Shown here piece by piece: positions 31,008 through 37,836 of a DNA stretch of 64,000 bases. Position 1 is the stretch's first letter, and every line of letters starts with the position of its first letter. The stretch is from positions 7,703 to 71,702 of the forward strand of contig DASVSP010000061.1 in assembly GCA_036388065.1 (NCBI GenBank). Reading direction: 5' to 3'. The DNA is from Allosphingosinicella sp. (GTDB taxonomy: Bacteria; Pseudomonadota; Alphaproteobacteria; Sphingomonadales; Sphingomonadaceae). Both the position numbers and the translations under genes were made by a program. A model generated the notes under the pieces. It was not told the DNA's origin. It worked only from the letters and a program-made list of their open reading frames with translations, and made no database searches.

Positions 31008-32834
31008 TCAGGCCGAGTCGCCGGCCGCGAGCGCCTGGTCCCGAAGCTCTCCACGCTCCGCAGCGCGCTTCTGGCGGCGCCACATCGCGGCGTAGAGGCC
31101 GCCGCGGGCAAGCAGCTCATGATGGCGGCCCCGCTCCGCGACTTCGCCGCCGGCGAGCACGAGTATCTCGTCCGAATCGACGATCGTCGAGAGGCGGTGG
31201 GCGATGACGAGCACCGTTCGTTCGGCGGAGATGGAGTGGAGGCTCTCCTGGATCTCCCGCTCGGTCTGGCTGTCGAGGGCGCTGGTCGCCTCGTCGAAGA
31301 CGAGGATCGCGGGATCCTTCAGGACGACCCGGGCGATCGCCACCCGCTGCTTCTCGCCTCCCGACAGCTTCAGCCCGCGCTCGCCCACTCTCGTCTCGTA
31401 ACCGTCGGGAAGCGTGAGGATGAAGTCGTGGATGCTGGCGGCCCGAGCCGCGGCTTCGATCTCCCGGGCCGTCGCGCCCGGGCGGGCGTAGCCGATATTG
31501 TAGCCGATCGTGTCGTTGAACAGGACCGTGTCCTGCGGCACCATTCCGATCGCCCGGCGAAGGCTCTTCTGCGACACCTCGCGCAGATCCTGGCCGTCGA
31601 TGCGTATGGCGCCGCCCCGGACGTCGTAAAAGCGGAACAGGAGGCGCGCGAGCGTGGACTTGCCGCCGCCGCTATGGCCGACGATCGCCACCGTCTTCCC
31701 GGCCGGAACGTCGAACGACACATCTTTCAGGATGGGCCGGCGCGGATCGTAGGCGAAAGTGACGGCGTCGAACGAGACTTCGCCGCCGGTGACCACCAGG
31801 TCGGGTGAGCCCGGCGCATCCGTCACGTCCGGCTGCACCTCGAGCAGCTGGACCAACGACTCGACGTCGGTGATCGATTGCCTCGTTCCGCTGTAGCTCG
31901 ACGCGAGCATTCCGAGCGGCACGTAGAGCTGGAGCAGATAGGCGTTGACCAGAACGAAATCGCCGACCGTCATCGTGCCGGCGGCGACCTCGCGGCCGGC
32001 CATGACCATGACCGCGATCATCCCGGCGGCGATGATCGCCGCCTGGCCGGCGGCGGACAGAGCCTCGACCCTTTCGGCGCGGACCGCGGCCTCCTCGTAG
32101 GCGCGCTTGGCCTGCTCGTAACGTTGCGCTTCGTTCGCCTCGGCGCCGAAATATTTCACCGTCTCATAGTTGAGAATGCTGTCGACGGCGATCGAGATCG
32201 CCGCCACGTCGCACGTGTTGCGGTAGCGCCTTGCGCGGATCTGCCGGCCTGTTGCGGCGATGGTCAGGCCGGCATAGCAAAGCACGGTGGCAAGCACCGC
32301 GACCGCGAAGTCCGCGCTGTAGAAGCCCCACAGGATGGCCGAGACCAGCACCAGCTCCAGAAACGTCGGAACGACGTTGAACAGCATGAGCTCGAGCAGA
32401 AACTCGATTCCGGAGACTCCGCGGTCCACGACCCGGGCGAGGCCGCCGGTCTGCCGATCGAGGTGGACTCGGAGCGACAGCGAATGGATGTGGTTGAACA
32501 TCTGGAGCGCGGTCGACCGGATCGCGCGCTGGGCCACCCTGATGAAGACCAGGCTTCGAACCGCCTCGACCAGCTGCCCGCCGACCTGGGCCACCCCGTA
32601 AGCGAGGATCAGGGCGATCGGGATCGCGGCGAGCGCCGGACCGGACAGTGAGTCGATGATCTGCTTGTAGAGAAAGGGCGCCGCGACCGCGACCAGCTTG
32701 GCCGCGAAGATCAGCGCGACCGAGACGACGACTCGCACCTTCATGCCCGCCTCGCCGCTCGGCCACATCAGCGCCAGCAACTGGCTCAGCGCCCACCGGG
32801 CGGGCGATTGGGGGATGGATTTCGGGTCGTTCAT
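31008..32834 (-). CDS. ABC transporter ATP-binding/permease (ATM1-like half transporter, no C39 peptidase domain)
   Basis: TM domain plus GHSGGGKST, LSGGEKQR, DEATSALD; divergent from the precursor array. Confidence 0.93.
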   Translation of the reverse strand: MNDPKSIPQSPARWALSQLLALMWPSGEAGMKVRVVVSVALIFAAKLVAVAAPFLYKQIIDSLSGPALAAIPIALILAYGVAQVGGQLVEAVRSLVFIRVAQRAIRSTALQMFNHIHSLSLRVHLDRQTGGLARVVDRGVSGIEFLLELMLFNVVPTFLELVLVSAILWGFYSADFAVAVLATVLCYAGLTIAATGRQIRARRYRNTCDVAAISIAVDSILNYETVKYFGAEANEAQRYEQAKRAYEEAAVRAERVEALSAAGQAAIIAAGMIAVMVMAGREVAAGTMTVGDFVLVNAYLLQLYVPLGMLASSYSGTRQSITDVESLVQLLEVQPDVTDAPGSPDLVVTGGEVSFDAVTFAYDPRRPILKDVSFDVPAGKTVAIVGHSGGGKSTLARLLFRFYDVRGGAIRIDGQDLREVSQKSLRRAIGMVPQDTVLFNDTIGYNIGYARPGATAREIEAAARAASIHDFILTLPDGYETRVGERGLKLSGGEKQRVAIARVVLKDPAILVFDEATSALDSQTEREIQESLHSISAERTVLVIAHRLSTIVDSDEILVLAGGEVAERGRHHELLARGGLYAAMWRRQKRAAERGELRDQALAAGDSA

Positions 32835-33004
32835 CCGTTTCGGACCAAAGGCTCCGGCGCCGGCGAAGCGCAATTGGAAGCCCGGATCATGTAATTCGCC
32901 TCGGGCACGGGTCGGCGCACCGCAGTCAGGGGAAAGAATACGCCGATAGGGTTGAAGACACTGAGCACCGGTGTCAGCCTTGGTTTCGGTGAAGCTCCGA
33001 GTCG

Positions 33005-33037
33005 CCGGATGTAATTATATCCGGAAGCGGATATAAT
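33005..33037. promoter_or_regulatory. Palindromic operator and TATAAT -10 box upstream of the precursor array
   Basis: CCGGATGTAATTATATCCGG (20-bp, 1 mismatch) then CGGATATAAT. Confidence 0.6.
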
Positions 33038-33059
33038 ACGCAACTTAGGAGAAGTAGAG

Positions 33060-33221
33060 ATGGAAAGAAAGACCTTTGCGTTTAAGCTGGCGGACAAGGC
33101 CGCGAACAGGACGTCGAAATGGAAGGCGCGCGACGGAGTCTCCATTGCGGGATGCAGCGAGCGTTCCGAAGGGGATTATCGCGATTACGTCAGAGGGGGT
33201 GATAACGGCTACCATTGCTAA
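33060..33221 (+). CDS. RiPP precursor peptide A1 (53 aa)
   Basis: MERKTFAFKLADKAANRTSKWKARDGVSIAG-CSERSEGDYRDYVRGGDNGYHC*; AGGAG RBS. Confidence 0.93.
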   Translation: MERKTFAFKLADKAANRTSKWKARDGVSIAGCSERSEGDYRDYVRGGDNGYHC

Positions 33222-33326
33222 CAGGTAGCTTGAGAGCTCCGACGGAAGTCGGACTCCCCCTCCGGGCGAGTCGAAGGGCGGATTTGATCCAATGCGGATG
33301 AAACTGCCACAGCAGGAGAAGTAGAG

Positions 33327-33491
33327 ATGGAAAAGAAGACCTTTGCGTTCAAGCTGGCCGACAGGGCCGCGAACGGCGCCTCCAAATGGAGGACTCGCGA
33401 CGGCGTTGCTGTCGCCGGATGCACCGACGTCACCGGAGACGGAGATTTGCGCTACAAGCTCAGGCTGGGTGACAACGGAGAGTATTGCTAG
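33327..33491 (+). CDS. RiPP precursor peptide A2 (54 aa)
   Basis: MEKKTFAFKLADRAANGASKWRTRDGVAVAG-CTDVTGDGDLRYKLRLGDNGEYC*; AGGAG RBS. Confidence 0.93.
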   Translation: MEKKTFAFKLADRAANGASKWRTRDGVAVAGCTDVTGDGDLRYKLRLGDNGEYC

Positions 33492-33596
33492 CAGCAGAAC
33501 GTCCTGGAGCCCTCGACTAAAAATCGGGGGCTCCTCGGGTGTCCTTGTCACCCGATCACGTACGAACCGCATAATTTATTGAGCCCGGAGGATAAG

Positions 33597-33758
33597 ATGC
33601 AAAAGAAGACCTTTGCTTTCAAATTGGCCGACAAAAACGCGAACGCCGTTTCCAAATGGAGTGCGCGCGACGGAGTTCCGCTCGCGGGCTGCACTGAAGT
33701 CAGGCTTGGCAATTATCGCGAGTCGAGCAGGTTCGGAGACAACGGCGTTTATTGCTAG
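33597..33758 (+). CDS. RiPP precursor peptide A3 (53 aa)
   Basis: MQKKTFAFKLADKNANAVSKWSARDGVPLAG-CTEVRLGNYRESSRFGDNGVYC*; GGAGG RBS. Confidence 0.93.
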   Translation: MQKKTFAFKLADKNANAVSKWSARDGVPLAGCTEVRLGNYRESSRFGDNGVYC

Positions 33759-33852
33759 ACTCTACTGACCCCGGAGCGACGCTGGCACTGTAGCTGTCCA
33801 ATGAGCCGCAGCAGCTAATGTCGCTCCGATTTACAAACCGTGGAGAATTAAA

Positions 33853-34014
33853 ATGGAAAAGAAGACTTTTGCATTCAAGCTGTCCGACAAGGCCGCCAGG
33901 GGCGCTTCCAAATGGACGGCCCGCGACGGAATCTCGCTCGCCGGCTGCAGCAACGTCGGCGACTACAATTATCGCGCTAGCCGCTTAAGAGGCGACGACG
34001 GGATATATTGCTAG
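33853..34014 (+). CDS. RiPP precursor peptide A4 (53 aa)
   Basis: MEKKTFAFKLSDKAARGASKWTARDGISLAG-CSNVGDYNYRASRLRGDDGIYC*; GGAG RBS. Confidence 0.93.
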   Translation: MEKKTFAFKLSDKAARGASKWTARDGISLAGCSNVGDYNYRASRLRGDDGIYC

Positions 34015-34135
34015 GATCGCTACGTCGCGGAGTCTCCGGCTCAGGCCGGGGGCTCCTTGGCCCGGTCGACCCCGAGACGGTGCGGTCGGTTACCGAAATC
34101 TGACCGAACTCTGAAAAGAATGGCCAGCAAAGGAG

Positions 34136-34285
34136 ATGGAAATGAGGACTTTTGCCTTCAAGCTCGCCGGCAAGACAGCCGGAACCGATTCCAAATGGAT
34201 GGCGCGCGACGGCGTTTCTCTCGCCGCCTGCACTTATGTCGGCGACGGTCAGTATCGTTGGAGAGACAACGGCTACTATTGCTGA
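34136..34285 (+). CDS. RiPP precursor peptide A5 (49 aa; 47 aa if started at ATG 34142, which has better RBS spacing)
   Basis: MEMRTFAFKLAGKTAGTDSKWMARDGVSLAA-CTYVGDGQYRWRDNGYYC*. Confidence 0.92.
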   Translation: MEMRTFAFKLAGKTAGTDSKWMARDGVSLAACTYVGDGQYRWRDNGYYC

Positions 34286-34298
34286 CGGCGGAGCGCAG

Positions 34299-35300
34299 GT
34301 GTCAAAGCGCGTTCTGATCGTCACCAACAGCGACGATCTTCACGCCGACCTGGTGGCGGCCCGGATCGAGTCCGAGGGCGGGGCCGCCTTTCGGCTCGAT
34401 CTCGACGAATATCCCGCCGGCTTCGAAATCGGCTTCGGCTTTTCCGGCGGCCGCTGGGACGGCTCGCTCGTCCGGACGGCGGGCGGGGAGTCGCTCGCGT
34501 TGCAGGACGTCGGAGCGGTCTGGATGCGCAAGCGCGCGTCCTTCCGCTACCGTTCCGACGGCATGGGCGCGCACGAGAAGGCGCATGCCGACGCCGAAAC
34601 CGACCACATGCTGCTGGGCATTCTTCGGTCGCTCGATTGCCGGTGGATGAGCCATCCCGACGCCGTGCGCGGATCGCACTGGAAGCCCGAGCAGCTTCGG
34701 CGCGCGGCGCGAATGGGCTTTGCCGTTCCGGAATCGCTGATGACCAATATCCGTGCGGAAGTGGACCGGTTTTCCGCCACGGCCGAACATGGCATCGTCT
34801 TCAAGCTGCTCTCCTCGATGCTCGACGCGGCCGACTCGGTCGGTCCGCAGGAAGAGCTGGCGCGGGGGGTCCCGACCACCCTGATCGGCCCGGAGCATGA
34901 GGATATGCTCGATTCGGTGGCGGAGCTGCCCTGCTTCTTCCAGCATTATGTTCCAAAGCGCCACGAGCTTCGGGTGACGGTCATCGGCGGATCCGTGTAC
35001 GCCGCCCGGATCCATTCGCAGGACGATCCTCGGACGACGACGGACTGGCGCGACATGTCGGCGGAGATCCGCTACGAGGCCGAGACCCTTCCACCCGAAG
35101 TGGCGAGGCGCTGCCTCGACTTCGTCCACAGCTACGGCCTGACCTTCGGCGCCATCGACCTCGTCGTGACTCCGTCCGGCGACCACGTTTTCCTGGAAAA
35201 CAACCCCGTCGGCCAGTTCCTCTTCGTCGAGCAGCTGGTTCCCGAGCTGGACATGACCGGGGCCGTCGCCCGGTGGCTCGTCGACTCCGCCCGTTCGTGA
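34299..35300 (+). CDS. MvdC/MvdD-family ATP-grasp ligase (graspetide synthetase)
   Basis: GTG start after GGAG, 13 nt after A5; VLIVTNSDDLHAD, KPEQL..A...G..VP...MTN, FQHYVPKRHELRVTVIG, DWR, FGAIDL, FLENNPVGQF. Confidence 0.9.
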   Translation: MSKRVLIVTNSDDLHADLVAARIESEGGAAFRLDLDEYPAGFEIGFGFSGGRWDGSLVRTAGGESLALQDVGAVWMRKRASFRYRSDGMGAHEKAHADAETDHMLLGILRSLDCRWMSHPDAVRGSHWKPEQLRRAARMGFAVPESLMTNIRAEVDRFSATAEHGIVFKLLSSMLDAADSVGPQEELARGVPTTLIGPEHEDMLDSVAELPCFFQHYVPKRHELRVTVIGGSVYAARIHSQDDPRTTTDWRDMSAEIRYEAETLPPEVARRCLDFVHSYGLTFGAIDLVVTPSGDHVFLENNPVGQFLFVEQLVPELDMTGAVARWLVDSARS

Positions 35301-35311
35301 CTCGAGGCCGA

Positions 35312-36184
35312 ATGAACCTTCACCACCACATCGTCGATATCGAACGCCGGCGGCGCAGCCGGCTTCTCGTTTTCGCGGCTTCGAACCTGGAGACGGATCT
35401 GCTTCCCGCACTGTACGACACGTTGCGGGAAATCGGACGCACCGAGCGTCTCGACGTCCTGCTCCACTGCCACGGCGGCGAAGTGACCGCGGCGAGGGCC
35501 ATCGCCCTGCTTCTCCACCAGTTCACCGACCATCTCGCCTTCATCGTCCCGGAGCGGTGCACCTCCTCGGGAACGATCCTCGCGCTCTCGGGCCACGAGA
35601 TCGTCGCCGGGCCGGCCGCTTTGTTCTCGCCGGTCGATCCCCTGCTGCAGGGTCCCACGTCCGGGGCGGACGATCCGCTCGGGTCGATTTCGGCACAGGA
35701 CGTGCGGCTGTTCGGAGTCATGAGCCGGGATTGGTTCGGTCTTCCCGAGGGCGAAGCCGGGCCCAAAGCTCTCTCGGTTCTGTGCGACAACGTCTTCCCG
35801 ACGACCCTGACCTCTTTCTACCGCTCCACGCTCGAGGTCGAGGCCGTCTGCCTCGAATTGCTTTCGCTGCACATGGGCGCAGGCTCGGCGGCGGAGAAAA
35901 AGACGATCGTCGACAGCCTCCTCTACGGCCATCATTCGCACGGCTTCGCGCTGATGCGCGGCGACCTGGCCGCCCTCGGGCTGCCGCTCCGGGGCGACCC
36001 GGAAACCGAAGACATTGCGTGGGAAGTGGCGCGGACGGTCCGCCAGTCCGTCGGGGGCAGCTCGCGGCGGGCAGCGGAGGACGACTGGACCGACGTTCTG
36101 CTCGCGACCCGCTCGGCTTCCCGTCGCCGGCGGCGAAGCCGGGAGGGCATCGGTCCGGCCTGGGAAAGCGGCGAGATCGAATGA
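35312..36184 (+). CDS. SDH-family (ClpP/S49-fold) serine proteinase; alternative start GTG 35297 overlapping the ligase stop
   Basis: DVLLHCHGG, VPERCTSSGTILAL, SPVDP, SHGFAL.R.DL..LGL. Confidence 0.82.
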   Translation: MNLHHHIVDIERRRRSRLLVFAASNLETDLLPALYDTLREIGRTERLDVLLHCHGGEVTAARAIALLLHQFTDHLAFIVPERCTSSGTILALSGHEIVAGPAALFSPVDPLLQGPTSGADDPLGSISAQDVRLFGVMSRDWFGLPEGEAGPKALSVLCDNVFPTTLTSFYRSTLEVEAVCLELLSLHMGAGSAAEKKTIVDSLLYGHHSHGFALMRGDLAALGLPLRGDPETEDIAWEVARTVRQSVGGSSRRAAEDDWTDVLLATRSASRRRRRSREGIGPAWESGEIE

Positions 36185-36687
36185 CGAGCCTGGCCGCGTT
36201 TTCGGGCGAGGCGTGCCGGCTCTACGTGATGGTCGCCCTTGCCGCCGCCGTTGCCGGCAAGTCGATGGCGATCGACGATTTCAGGGACACGCTTCTCGAC
36301 CTGCCGGGACTGTCGCCGCGCAATTCCGGTGCCGCGGCGCTTGCGGTGATCGGCAGCGAGGCCGTGATCCTGGGCTGGGCGGCGGTCGCGCCGCGGACCG
36401 GAATGGTCGCGGCCCTGGCGGCCTTCGCGCTGATGTCGAGCGCGATCCTTGCCGCCCTTCTCACGGGCCGGCCGCTGATGTGCAATTGCTTCGGGGGACG
36501 GGCACGGCCGGTCTCCTGGCTGGACCTGGTCCGCAACCTGGCGCTGATCGGCGCCTGCGCGTCCTTCCTTCTGGCGCCGCCCTTGGGCGCGCCCGGCCTT
36601 GCAGGATGGCTGCTGCTCCTCGGCCTGGCGTTCATCGCCTTCCTGGTTTCGGCCAACCTCGACGAGATCGCGGCGCCGGCCCGCTGA
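36181..36687 (+). CDS. MauE/DoxX-family redox membrane protein
   Basis: ATGA overlap with protease stop; 4-5 TM; CNCFG motif then VSWLDLVRN. Confidence 0.87.
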   Translation: MTSLAAFSGEACRLYVMVALAAAVAGKSMAIDDFRDTLLDLPGLSPRNSGAAALAVIGSEAVILGWAAVAPRTGMVAALAAFALMSSAILAALLTGRPLMCNCFGGRARPVSWLDLVRNLALIGACASFLLAPPLGAPGLAGWLLLLGLAFIAFLVSANLDEIAAPAR

Positions 36688-37229
36688 TGGACTCCGATCT
36701 CATCGTCCTCGTGCTCGTCGTGGTGACGTTCGCAGCCGCGTTCAACCTGTGGCTGACCTTTCGCCTCTCCGCTCGAATCCGGGAGATGACGGCGCCCGCC
36801 TTCACCGTCACCCTCGGTGATCCGGTACCTTCGTTCGAGGGCACGGCGTCGGCCGGGAGCCGGGCGATCCGGTCCTCGGATCTCGCCGGGCAGCCGGCGG
36901 TGCTGGTGTTCCTCTCGGCCGGGTGCAGCACCTGCGCGGGGCACATCCCGGAGCTGGCCGCGATCCTGGACGGAGCGGGGCGGCTCGGTGTGAGCCTCTG
37001 GATCGTTCCGGCCGACGACGTCCACGACATCGCCCGCCTCGTCGGCGGAACGCCGCTGGCGGAGCGCGTGCTGGTCCTCGAACCGGCTCACCGCCTTCGC
37101 CTCAATCCGATGAGATCGGCGCCCTTCTACCTGTTCATCGACGAGAATTCGGTCGCCCGGGCGAGCAACAATCTCGGCGACGAGGATTGGACAACGTTCG
37201 TCGAGCAGATGTTGGAAGGGGCTGGATAG
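36687..37229 (+). CDS. MauD-like membrane-anchored thioredoxin (CxxC)
   Basis: TGATG overlap; N-terminal TM; GDPVPSF, LVFLSAGCSTC, APFYLFID. Confidence 0.85.
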   Translation: MDSDLIVLVLVVVTFAAAFNLWLTFRLSARIREMTAPAFTVTLGDPVPSFEGTASAGSRAIRSSDLAGQPAVLVFLSAGCSTCAGHIPELAAILDGAGRLGVSLWIVPADDVHDIARLVGGTPLAERVLVLEPAHRLRLNPMRSAPFYLFIDENSVARASNNLGDEDWTTFVEQMLEGAG

Positions 37230-37419: not shown

Positions 37420-37836
37420 ATGCCGAAGGGAGCCTGTCTTTGCGGCGCCGTCAGCTTCGAGGTGGAGGGAGACCTGCCGCCGCCCGACGCGTGCCATTGC
37501 ACGGCCTGCCGCAAGTCGTCCGGCCATTATTTCGCCTCCACGGACGTTCCGCGGGATTCGCTCACGATCCGCGGCGCCGAGCATGTCACCTGGTACGGCT
37601 CGTCCGAGAAAGCGAGGCGTGGTTTTTGCTCCGTCTGCGGCTCGTCGCTTTTCTGGGATCCGCTGCACCGCAACTGGACGGCGGTGGCCATGGGCGCCTT
37701 CGAAGGGACCACGGGCACTTCGCTCGACAAGCACATCTTCGTCCACGAGAAGGGAGATTATTACGACCTCGAGGACGGATTGCCGCGCTTCGGGTCCGAT
37801 CCGACGAGGGAGTGGAGTCCGGAGACGGACGGCTGA
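37420..37836 (+). CDS. GFA family protein
   Basis: GACLCG, CHCTACRK, FCSVCGS. Confidence 0.9.
   Translation: MPKGACLCGAVSFEVEGDLPPPDACHCTACRKSSGHYFASTDVPRDSLTIRGAEHVTWYGSSEKARRGFCSVCGSSLFWDPLHRNWTAVAMGAFEGTTGTSLDKHIFVHEKGDYYDLEDGLPRFGSDPTREWSPETDG

Follow-up and report, generated by a model that had tools for sequence, protein, structure and literature searches.

The locus analysed here raises the question of what a MauE-like membrane protein and a membrane-anchored thioredoxin do at the end of a peptide operon from which the genes of methylamine dehydrogenase (MADH) are missing. The window, by which we mean the whole stretch of 64,000 nucleotides under analysis (Allosphingosinicella sp., contig DASVSP010000061.1), had received an initial annotation in which this pair was read as a dedicated thiol-redox module for the core cysteines of the precursors, one that forms or protects a disulfide or provides self-protection. 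The absence of mauA, mauB and mauG, claimed there for the window, extends to the whole genome (89% complete): MADH light chain, MADH heavy chain and MauG gave no match, the light-chain model being one that matched 6 of 301 same-phylum genomes and the heavy-chain model one that matched no control.

Organisation of the operon

The operon (33060-37229) is formed, in this order, by five precursors, an ATP-grasp synthetase, an SDH/ClpP-like protease, the MauE protein and the anchored CxxC thioredoxin, and an ABC exporter is encoded divergently from it. The features are the following:

31008..32834, minus strand: ABC exporter, MsbA/Atm1-like (Pfam ABC_membrane and ABC_tran; start codon inferred)
33060..33221, plus strand: precursor 1, 53 aa; FAFKL leader; core from C32 to the terminal C53; fits the cluster281 consensus
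33327..33491, plus strand: precursor 2, 54 aa, 2 Cys
33597..33758, plus strand: precursor 3, 53 aa, 2 Cys
33853..34014, plus strand: precursor 4, 53 aa, 2 Cys
34136..34285, plus strand: precursor 5, 49 aa, 2 Cys
34299..35300, plus strand: ATP-grasp graspetide synthetase (PF21068, 54.2 bits, above cut-off)
35312..36184, plus strand: SDH-type ClpP-like serine protease (PF01972, 42.7 bits, above cut-off); no signal peptide
36181..36687, plus strand: MauE-family membrane protein, 168 aa (PF07291, 61.9 bits, cut-off 27)
36687..37229, plus strand: membrane-anchored CxxC thioredoxin-fold protein, 180 aa (AhpC-TSA, 33.6 bits, cut-off 26)

Against NCBIfam the synthetase scored 224 bits with TIGR04187 and 199 bits with TIGR04184, both below cut-off; it is predicted to make a single ester, from the Ser/Thr at core position 2 to the Asp located six residues from the end. 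The protease is conserved across related clusters and likely removes the precursor leader. No peptidase domain was seen in the exporter, copies of which, 66-91% identical, occupy the same place in loci L001 and L003-L006, and it likely exports the graspetide product.

The initial annotation had described the last two genes as a CNCFG membrane protein and an anchored CSTC thioredoxin, translationally coupled at the operon end, and all of this was confirmed. Stop and start codons overlap in ATGA between the protease and MauE genes and in TGATG between the MauE and thioredoxin genes. A GFA-family (CENP-V/GFA) gene lies directly after the operon (window 37420-37836); no counterpart of it was found in 11 related loci from species genomes, so that the MauE/thioredoxin pair ends the conserved block. 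The G+C content of the precursor region (window 32001-34000) was 0.61, versus about 0.67 for the window, and no promoter or terminator signal rose above shuffled sequences.

Precursors and class of the cluster

Each of the five precursors contains two Cys and no more, one being residue 32 and the other the C-terminal residue, in agreement with the earlier count, and none carries a signal peptide. The same layout is kept among the loci related by synthetase, where 106/106 distinct cores have two Cys, start with C[ST] and end in Cys, with Asp at -6 in 104 of them, figures that come from a precursor profile built from two-Cys sequences of this kind and therefore favouring them. One extra precursor that falls outside the core pattern likewise has two Cys. 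The cores are 18-29 residues long and a twin-arginine leader is absent. This core layout predicts a disulfide located just outside the single Ser/Thr-Asp ester.

The precursors match the consensus FAFKL...W..RDG..AGC[ST]...DxGxYC, which is that of graspetide group 9 / cluster 281. The window synthetase is 80% identical to the enzyme of locus L003, a locus whose first precursor is listed under group 9 in the accessible part of PMC13097080 (section 7, on group 9 graspetides); the accessible part of PMC8939145 predicts a single ester for cluster 281. The features that these sources give for the type, namely the FAFKL leader, the AGC[ST]...DxGxxC core and a serine protease neighbour, are also found here. 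Judging by the precursor consensus, we assign the cluster to graspetide group 9 / precursor cluster 281, a listed type that is apparently uncharacterised. No isolated group 9 peptide was found in the open-access literature. MauE, thioredoxin and disulfide are absent for group 9 from the main texts of PMC8939145 and PMC13097080 (table S4 of PMC13097080, a list of co-occurring proteins, may name MauE), and among the supplements covered MauE turns up for this type solely in the annotation rows of a single one. This identity, as well as the predicted inverted orientation described below, goes beyond the initial annotation.

Conservation of the pair and its association with Cys

The relatives of the synthetase comprised 11 loci from species genomes and the best 80 of 148 from metagenomes; the 91 loci tallied were the window, 10 species-genome loci and those 80. 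Both genes of the pair were present in 61 of the 66 loci that could be judged, the other 5 lacking it with at least 3 kb of sequence downstream, while 3 loci were cut after MauE and 22 were too short. Among judgeable loci with a detected two-Cys precursor the pair was present in 57/60. Of 11 actinobacterial regions, 8 had the pair and 3 did not. Where it is present, the precursors have two Cys (L121) or six Cys (L122, L126-L129, L131), and in L125 no precursor was found; where it is missing, the candidate precursors are Cys-free (L124, L130) or the precursor is ambiguous (L123). A single Cys is found in two further loci without the pair, L092 and L094, the latter with sequence that stops 3 kb downstream, and all the loci with no Cys or a single one (L092, L094, L124, L130) are thus without the pair.

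It had been expected that the cores would be Cys-free where the pair is missing. These four loci follow that direction; three others, L074 and the near-identical L062/L079, do not, and have 2-Cys cores, synthetase and protease with the pair absent within 7 kb. Two lineages thus keep 2-Cys cores without the pair, and they are natural controls for its role. Since no more than 1-2 independent contrasts are available for the Cys trait on the tree of the synthetase, the association between Cys and the pair is suggestive and not significant. The search for further Cys-free clusters gave 2 of 351 Actinomycetota genomes, 1 of 301 genomes (the genome itself) and none in plasmids.

The six-Cys loci named above carry group 9-like precursors, predicted to yield peptides with three disulfides plus the ester. 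One of them, L131, combines at least 4 copies of the precursor with two ATP-grasp genes and what is probably a gene for a methyltransferase.

The MauE protein and the thioredoxin

The MauE active-site motif is C101-N-C103-F-G. In an alignment of 44 rows C101, C103, G105, K27, E60 and R118 are invariant and F104 is nearly so. The structure model shows five long helices (pLDDT 93), and a fifth hydrophobic segment was detected in 36 of the 44 graspetide MauE homologues. With this model Foldseek returned no match at E 0.001; the best VIA fold match, NACHO/TMEM35A (Z 8.9, rmsd 3.2, 117 aligned), was discarded, being within the range expected for helical bundles.

A preprint (bioRxiv 10.64898/2026.03.05.709764) describes two four-helix MauEs that replace DsbB in E. 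coli via the CxC, both Cys of which are required for oxidation. In that work the CxC of the two tested proteins is predicted to lie in the periplasm, MauD is treated as the DsbA equivalent, and conserved Lys, Glu and Phe are located near the quinone, which was placed by docking only. MauE is also reported there to be widespread beyond such clusters, and a study that proposes MauE as a reductase is cited. Taking into account that the CxC-FG, Lys and Glu of the preprint are invariant or nearly so in graspetide MauEs, oxidation is the activity supported.

The partner protein has an N-terminal hydrophobic helix and the motif C80-S-T-C83. Of the Pfam families proposed for the two proteins, MauE and AhpC-TSA were matched above cut-off and Redoxin, at 23.9 bits, was not. 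The name MauE-like therefore holds, whereas the name MauD-like describes the thioredoxin in build only, as judged from an N-terminal anchor and a CxxC thioredoxin fold encoded beside mauE: against TIGR02661 (MauD) it gave no match at E 0.1, where a true MauD scores 209.5, and it is 19% identical to a true MauD. A weak NCBIfam match to ResA was also seen (E 0.069).

MauE and thioredoxin are fused in 10 loci (9 loci plus L121), with the thioredoxin placed directly after MauE helix 5, on the CxC-loop side. The complex model scored 0.64, versus 0.00 for the best control, and the mark used for this score is reached by 116 of 157 solved pairs and by 2 of 215 mismatched pairs. The runs share at least 88% of contacts, and the pLDDT of the partners is at least 92. 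MauE helix 5 runs parallel to the thioredoxin anchor at the interface, and no CxxC-CxC contact is listed in the model. Neither Foldseek nor VIA found a solved MauE structure that could explain the passing score. From the modelled complex, MauE and thioredoxin are predicted to bind and act as one unit.

MauE domains were seen in other fusions. In L013 (G000:C24, in this genome) and in L144 and L145 (two relatives) a glutaredoxin-like domain is fused to a MauE domain with the motif CACVG, L144 being near a metal-sensing repressor-like gene; P0059 joins a MauE domain to a twin-arginine-like segment, behind which lies a Cys-rich tail.

Membrane orientation

The models of MauE and thioredoxin were uninformative on membrane sidedness, and orientation was evaluated as the number of Lys+Arg on the CxC side minus that on the other side, a charge bias that is a proxy for topology. 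Graspetide MauEs had an excess on the CxC side in 44/44 cases (44 after de-duplication from 62), with a mean of +8.1, and in the sequence of the window MauE that side carries 8 basic residues and the opposite side 1 to 2. The same excess was obtained for mau-cluster MauEs (4/4; 5 after de-duplication, 1 not parsed) and for other close MauEs (17/17; 23 after de-duplication, 6 not parsed). The active site of DsbB is periplasmic, and the DsbB control from 20 relatives was negative in 20/20. DsbA-linked four-helix MauEs showed only a weak opposite bias (86 negative, 21 zero and 28 positive among 135 parsed of 150 relatives; mean -1.1), with 118/135 negative when two conserved basic residues were discounted, in a set that derives from a single seed and one clade and has the preprint's two tested MauEs outside it.

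Regarding the anchor, its net N-terminal charge was positive in 2/38 graspetide thioredoxins, in 0/5 MauD and in 20/20 periplasmic CcmG. The window thioredoxin has an acidic N-terminus, which predicts an N-out anchor with the thioredoxin domain in the cytoplasm. A second measure, more Lys/Arg after the anchor than before it, held for 38/38 graspetide thioredoxins but also for 13/20 periplasmic CcmG; because it failed this control, the N-terminal charge is the sole discriminating anchor measure. Four-helix MauE-DsbA fusions have a basic cluster before the last helix in 11/11 cases, one of them a spurious segment. In a quick unrooted tree of 53 rows the four-helix set lies on one side of a branch (SH-aLRT 99), so that a single inversion would suffice, and the presence of both MauE types in genome G002 argues against a simple taxon effect. 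By charge, the CxC loop of graspetide MauEs is predicted to be on the cytoplasmic side, opposite to DsbB and most DsbA-linked MauEs. Beyond bioRxiv 10.64898/2026.03.05.709764, no paper on MauE/MauD orientation was found in the open-access literature.

Several Actinomycetota entries (L095 / L136 (G002:C1), P0068, P0081, P0098 and P0112) have a four-helix MauE adjoining or fused to DsbA, an arrangement that is the one expected for an outward-facing pathway.

Proposed mechanism and alternative explanations

A disulfide-forming role of the pair, taking both orientations together, is in our opinion quite probable. The proposal of a dedicated thiol-redox module for the core Cys gains support from the conservation of the pair, the fusions, the core Cys counts and the published oxidase activity of MauE. 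As to the precise form of this role, we incline slightly towards a cytoplasm-facing, quinone-linked, DsbB/DsbA-like oxidase relay that would close the core disulfide, between the first and the last Cys, before export. On the signal-less precursor the ATP-grasp enzyme would install a single ester, Ser/Thr2 to Asp(-6), as conservation suggests. From the CxxC of the thioredoxin a disulfide would be transferred to the two Cys flanking the ester, giving a hairpin bicycle, and the ester and disulfide steps could come in either order. The MauE CxC would re-oxidise the thioredoxin, and the electrons would go to the membrane quinone; oxidase activity is shown by the preprint for two other MauEs. Leader removal would fall to the protease, and export of the folded peptide to the ABC transporter.

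Since DsbB is present in 20/20 relatives, an outward-facing MauE oxidase would duplicate it. DsbB was not detected in the host genome itself; the idea that MauE replaces it there was rejected, considering those relatives and the incompleteness of the assembly. Against the cytoplasmic reading count the periplasmic CxC of the preprint, the reductase proposal, the 2-Cys loci without the pair and the lack of a listed CxxC-CxC contact. The main rival is a dedicated periplasm-facing oxidase or isomerase that acts on the reduced peptide after ABC export, and we regard it as rather unlikely. Co-occurrence and fusion fit it equally well, both MauEs tested to date act in the periplasm (bioRxiv 10.64898/2026.03.05.709764), and ResA, the weak match of the thioredoxin, faces outward. 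Six-Cys cores could need an isomerase, and the loss of the pair in two lineages would be easily covered by housekeeping DsbA/DsbB. It is, however, at odds with a charge bias opposite to that of DsbB and DsbA-linked MauE, and with an anchor that lacks the basic N-terminus of CcmG.

That the pair is a reductase keeping both Cys free, for a thioester, metal binding, substrate shape or producer protection, seems improbable to us: alongside the pair the cores hold an even number of Cys (2 or 6), each core has a Ser/Thr donor after its first Cys, both CxC Cys of MauE are required for oxidation in E. coli, and a reductase would be of little use facing an already reducing cytoplasm. The proposal draws on the reductase role suggested for MauE in the study cited by bioRxiv 10.64898/2026.03.05.709764 and on the fact that non-native thioesters are possible with graspetide synthetases. 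In the earlier claim, then, the forming of the disulfide is the favoured part, while its protection and self-protection are less favoured. The overlapping start and stop codons, the position conserved from Alphaproteobacteria to Actinomycetota, the repeated fusion and the absence of the pair beside Cys-poor precursors make it very improbable that the two genes are passengers that serve general redox needs without acting on the peptide, even if three loci keep 2-Cys cores without the pair and MauE is widespread outside such clusters.

Extending the cytoplasm-facing relay, we give an even chance to a broader proposal. Five-helix MauE with an N-out-anchored thioredoxin would be a widespread natural bacterial cytoplasmic disulfide machine for substrates exported folded, these being group 9 graspetides and other Cys-rich peptides via ABC transporters and twin-arginine substrates including methylamine dehydrogenase's small subunit; the four-helix DsbA-linked MauEs would be the inverted counterpart.

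Bacterial disulfide formation is held to occur outside the cytoplasm. If the cytoplasm-facing relay is true, oxidative folding would gain a new branch in the form of a natural pair that is quinone-linked and faces inward; this pair would explain the folded-protein (Tat) route of a six-disulfide enzyme subunit, and it could be a compact tool for disulfide-bonded peptides in the E. coli cytoplasm. Should the pair face outward instead, a graspetide with both an ester and an enzyme-made disulfide is still predicted from the cluster, a combination not found in the literature searched. The replacement of DsbB by MauE (2026 preprint) and mauE/mauD in RiPP clusters (2020, PMC7794033) are already in print. 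The predicted inversion, extending to true MauE/MauD, is what is new; neither this inversion nor a link of MauE to group 9 graspetides was found in the open-access literature.

Other Cys-rich neighbours of MauE

Genomes G001 and G002 have loci (L132-L135) where a five-helix MauE or its thioredoxin partner adjoins peptides or domains with 6 to 12 Cys, which either bear a twin-arginine-like leader or lack a hydrophobic signal. Oxidation of such substrates could take place on either face of the membrane, which fits the cytoplasmic reading without proving it. L133:4368-6803 and L135:4556-7782 (G002) are clusters of 61-66-aa peptides with 6-8 Cys, together with an S26 peptidase, a five-helix MauE and a CxxC thioredoxin, plus an ABC transporter in L135. 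The peptides gave no NCBIfam match, and they are a candidate disulfide-rich RiPP family. In L132:2455-3962 and L134:4369-7002 MauE-type modules stand beside twin-arginine-type Cys-rich proteins, one of 100 aa with 10 Cys and the other a 12-Cys protein with peptidoglycan-binding repeats.

Comparison with known systems

A close arrangement is that of the mau clusters (L114-L120), where a five-helix MauE is followed by an N-anchored CxxC protein with the same charge pattern. A profile search of 301 Pseudomonadota genomes gave 9 non-self matches, 7 of which were mau-cluster loci, and profile matches were obtained at 98.8% and 97.4% probability. The window operon differs in that mauA, mauB and mauG are absent, its thioredoxin misses TIGR02661 and its substrate is a short core without a twin-arginine leader. 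In L119 the small subunit carries a twin-arginine-like leader. Its disulfides may form before export.

The MauEs of bioRxiv 10.64898/2026.03.05.709764 share with the window protein the PF07291 domain, a CxC-FG motif lying between helices 3 and 4, a conserved Lys in helix 1 and a conserved Glu in helix 2, a thioredoxin partner and the existence of fusions. They have four helices, a CxC predicted to be periplasmic and a generalist role, whereas the window MauE differs in its five helices, its reversed charge bias and its place within a peptide operon. In the available part of PMC7794033 (decRiPPter, 2020), mauE/mauD homologues without a mau cluster stand beside Cys-rich precursors and are proposed as modifiers; those are Streptomyces precursors with at least 8 Cys, and that part holds no ATP-grasp link and nothing on orientation.

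Inverted DsbB and VKOR resemble the proposed relay in being quinone-linked membrane oxidases turned for cytoplasmic disulfides. A natural inward-facing archaeal VKOR exists. According to the accessible part of PMC5471842, which cites Hatahet and Ruddock 2013, engineered inverted DsbB and VKOR make cytoplasmic disulfides. Those enzymes belong to another protein family and are engineered or archaeal, whereas here the candidate is a natural bacterial pair that would be specific to one pathway.
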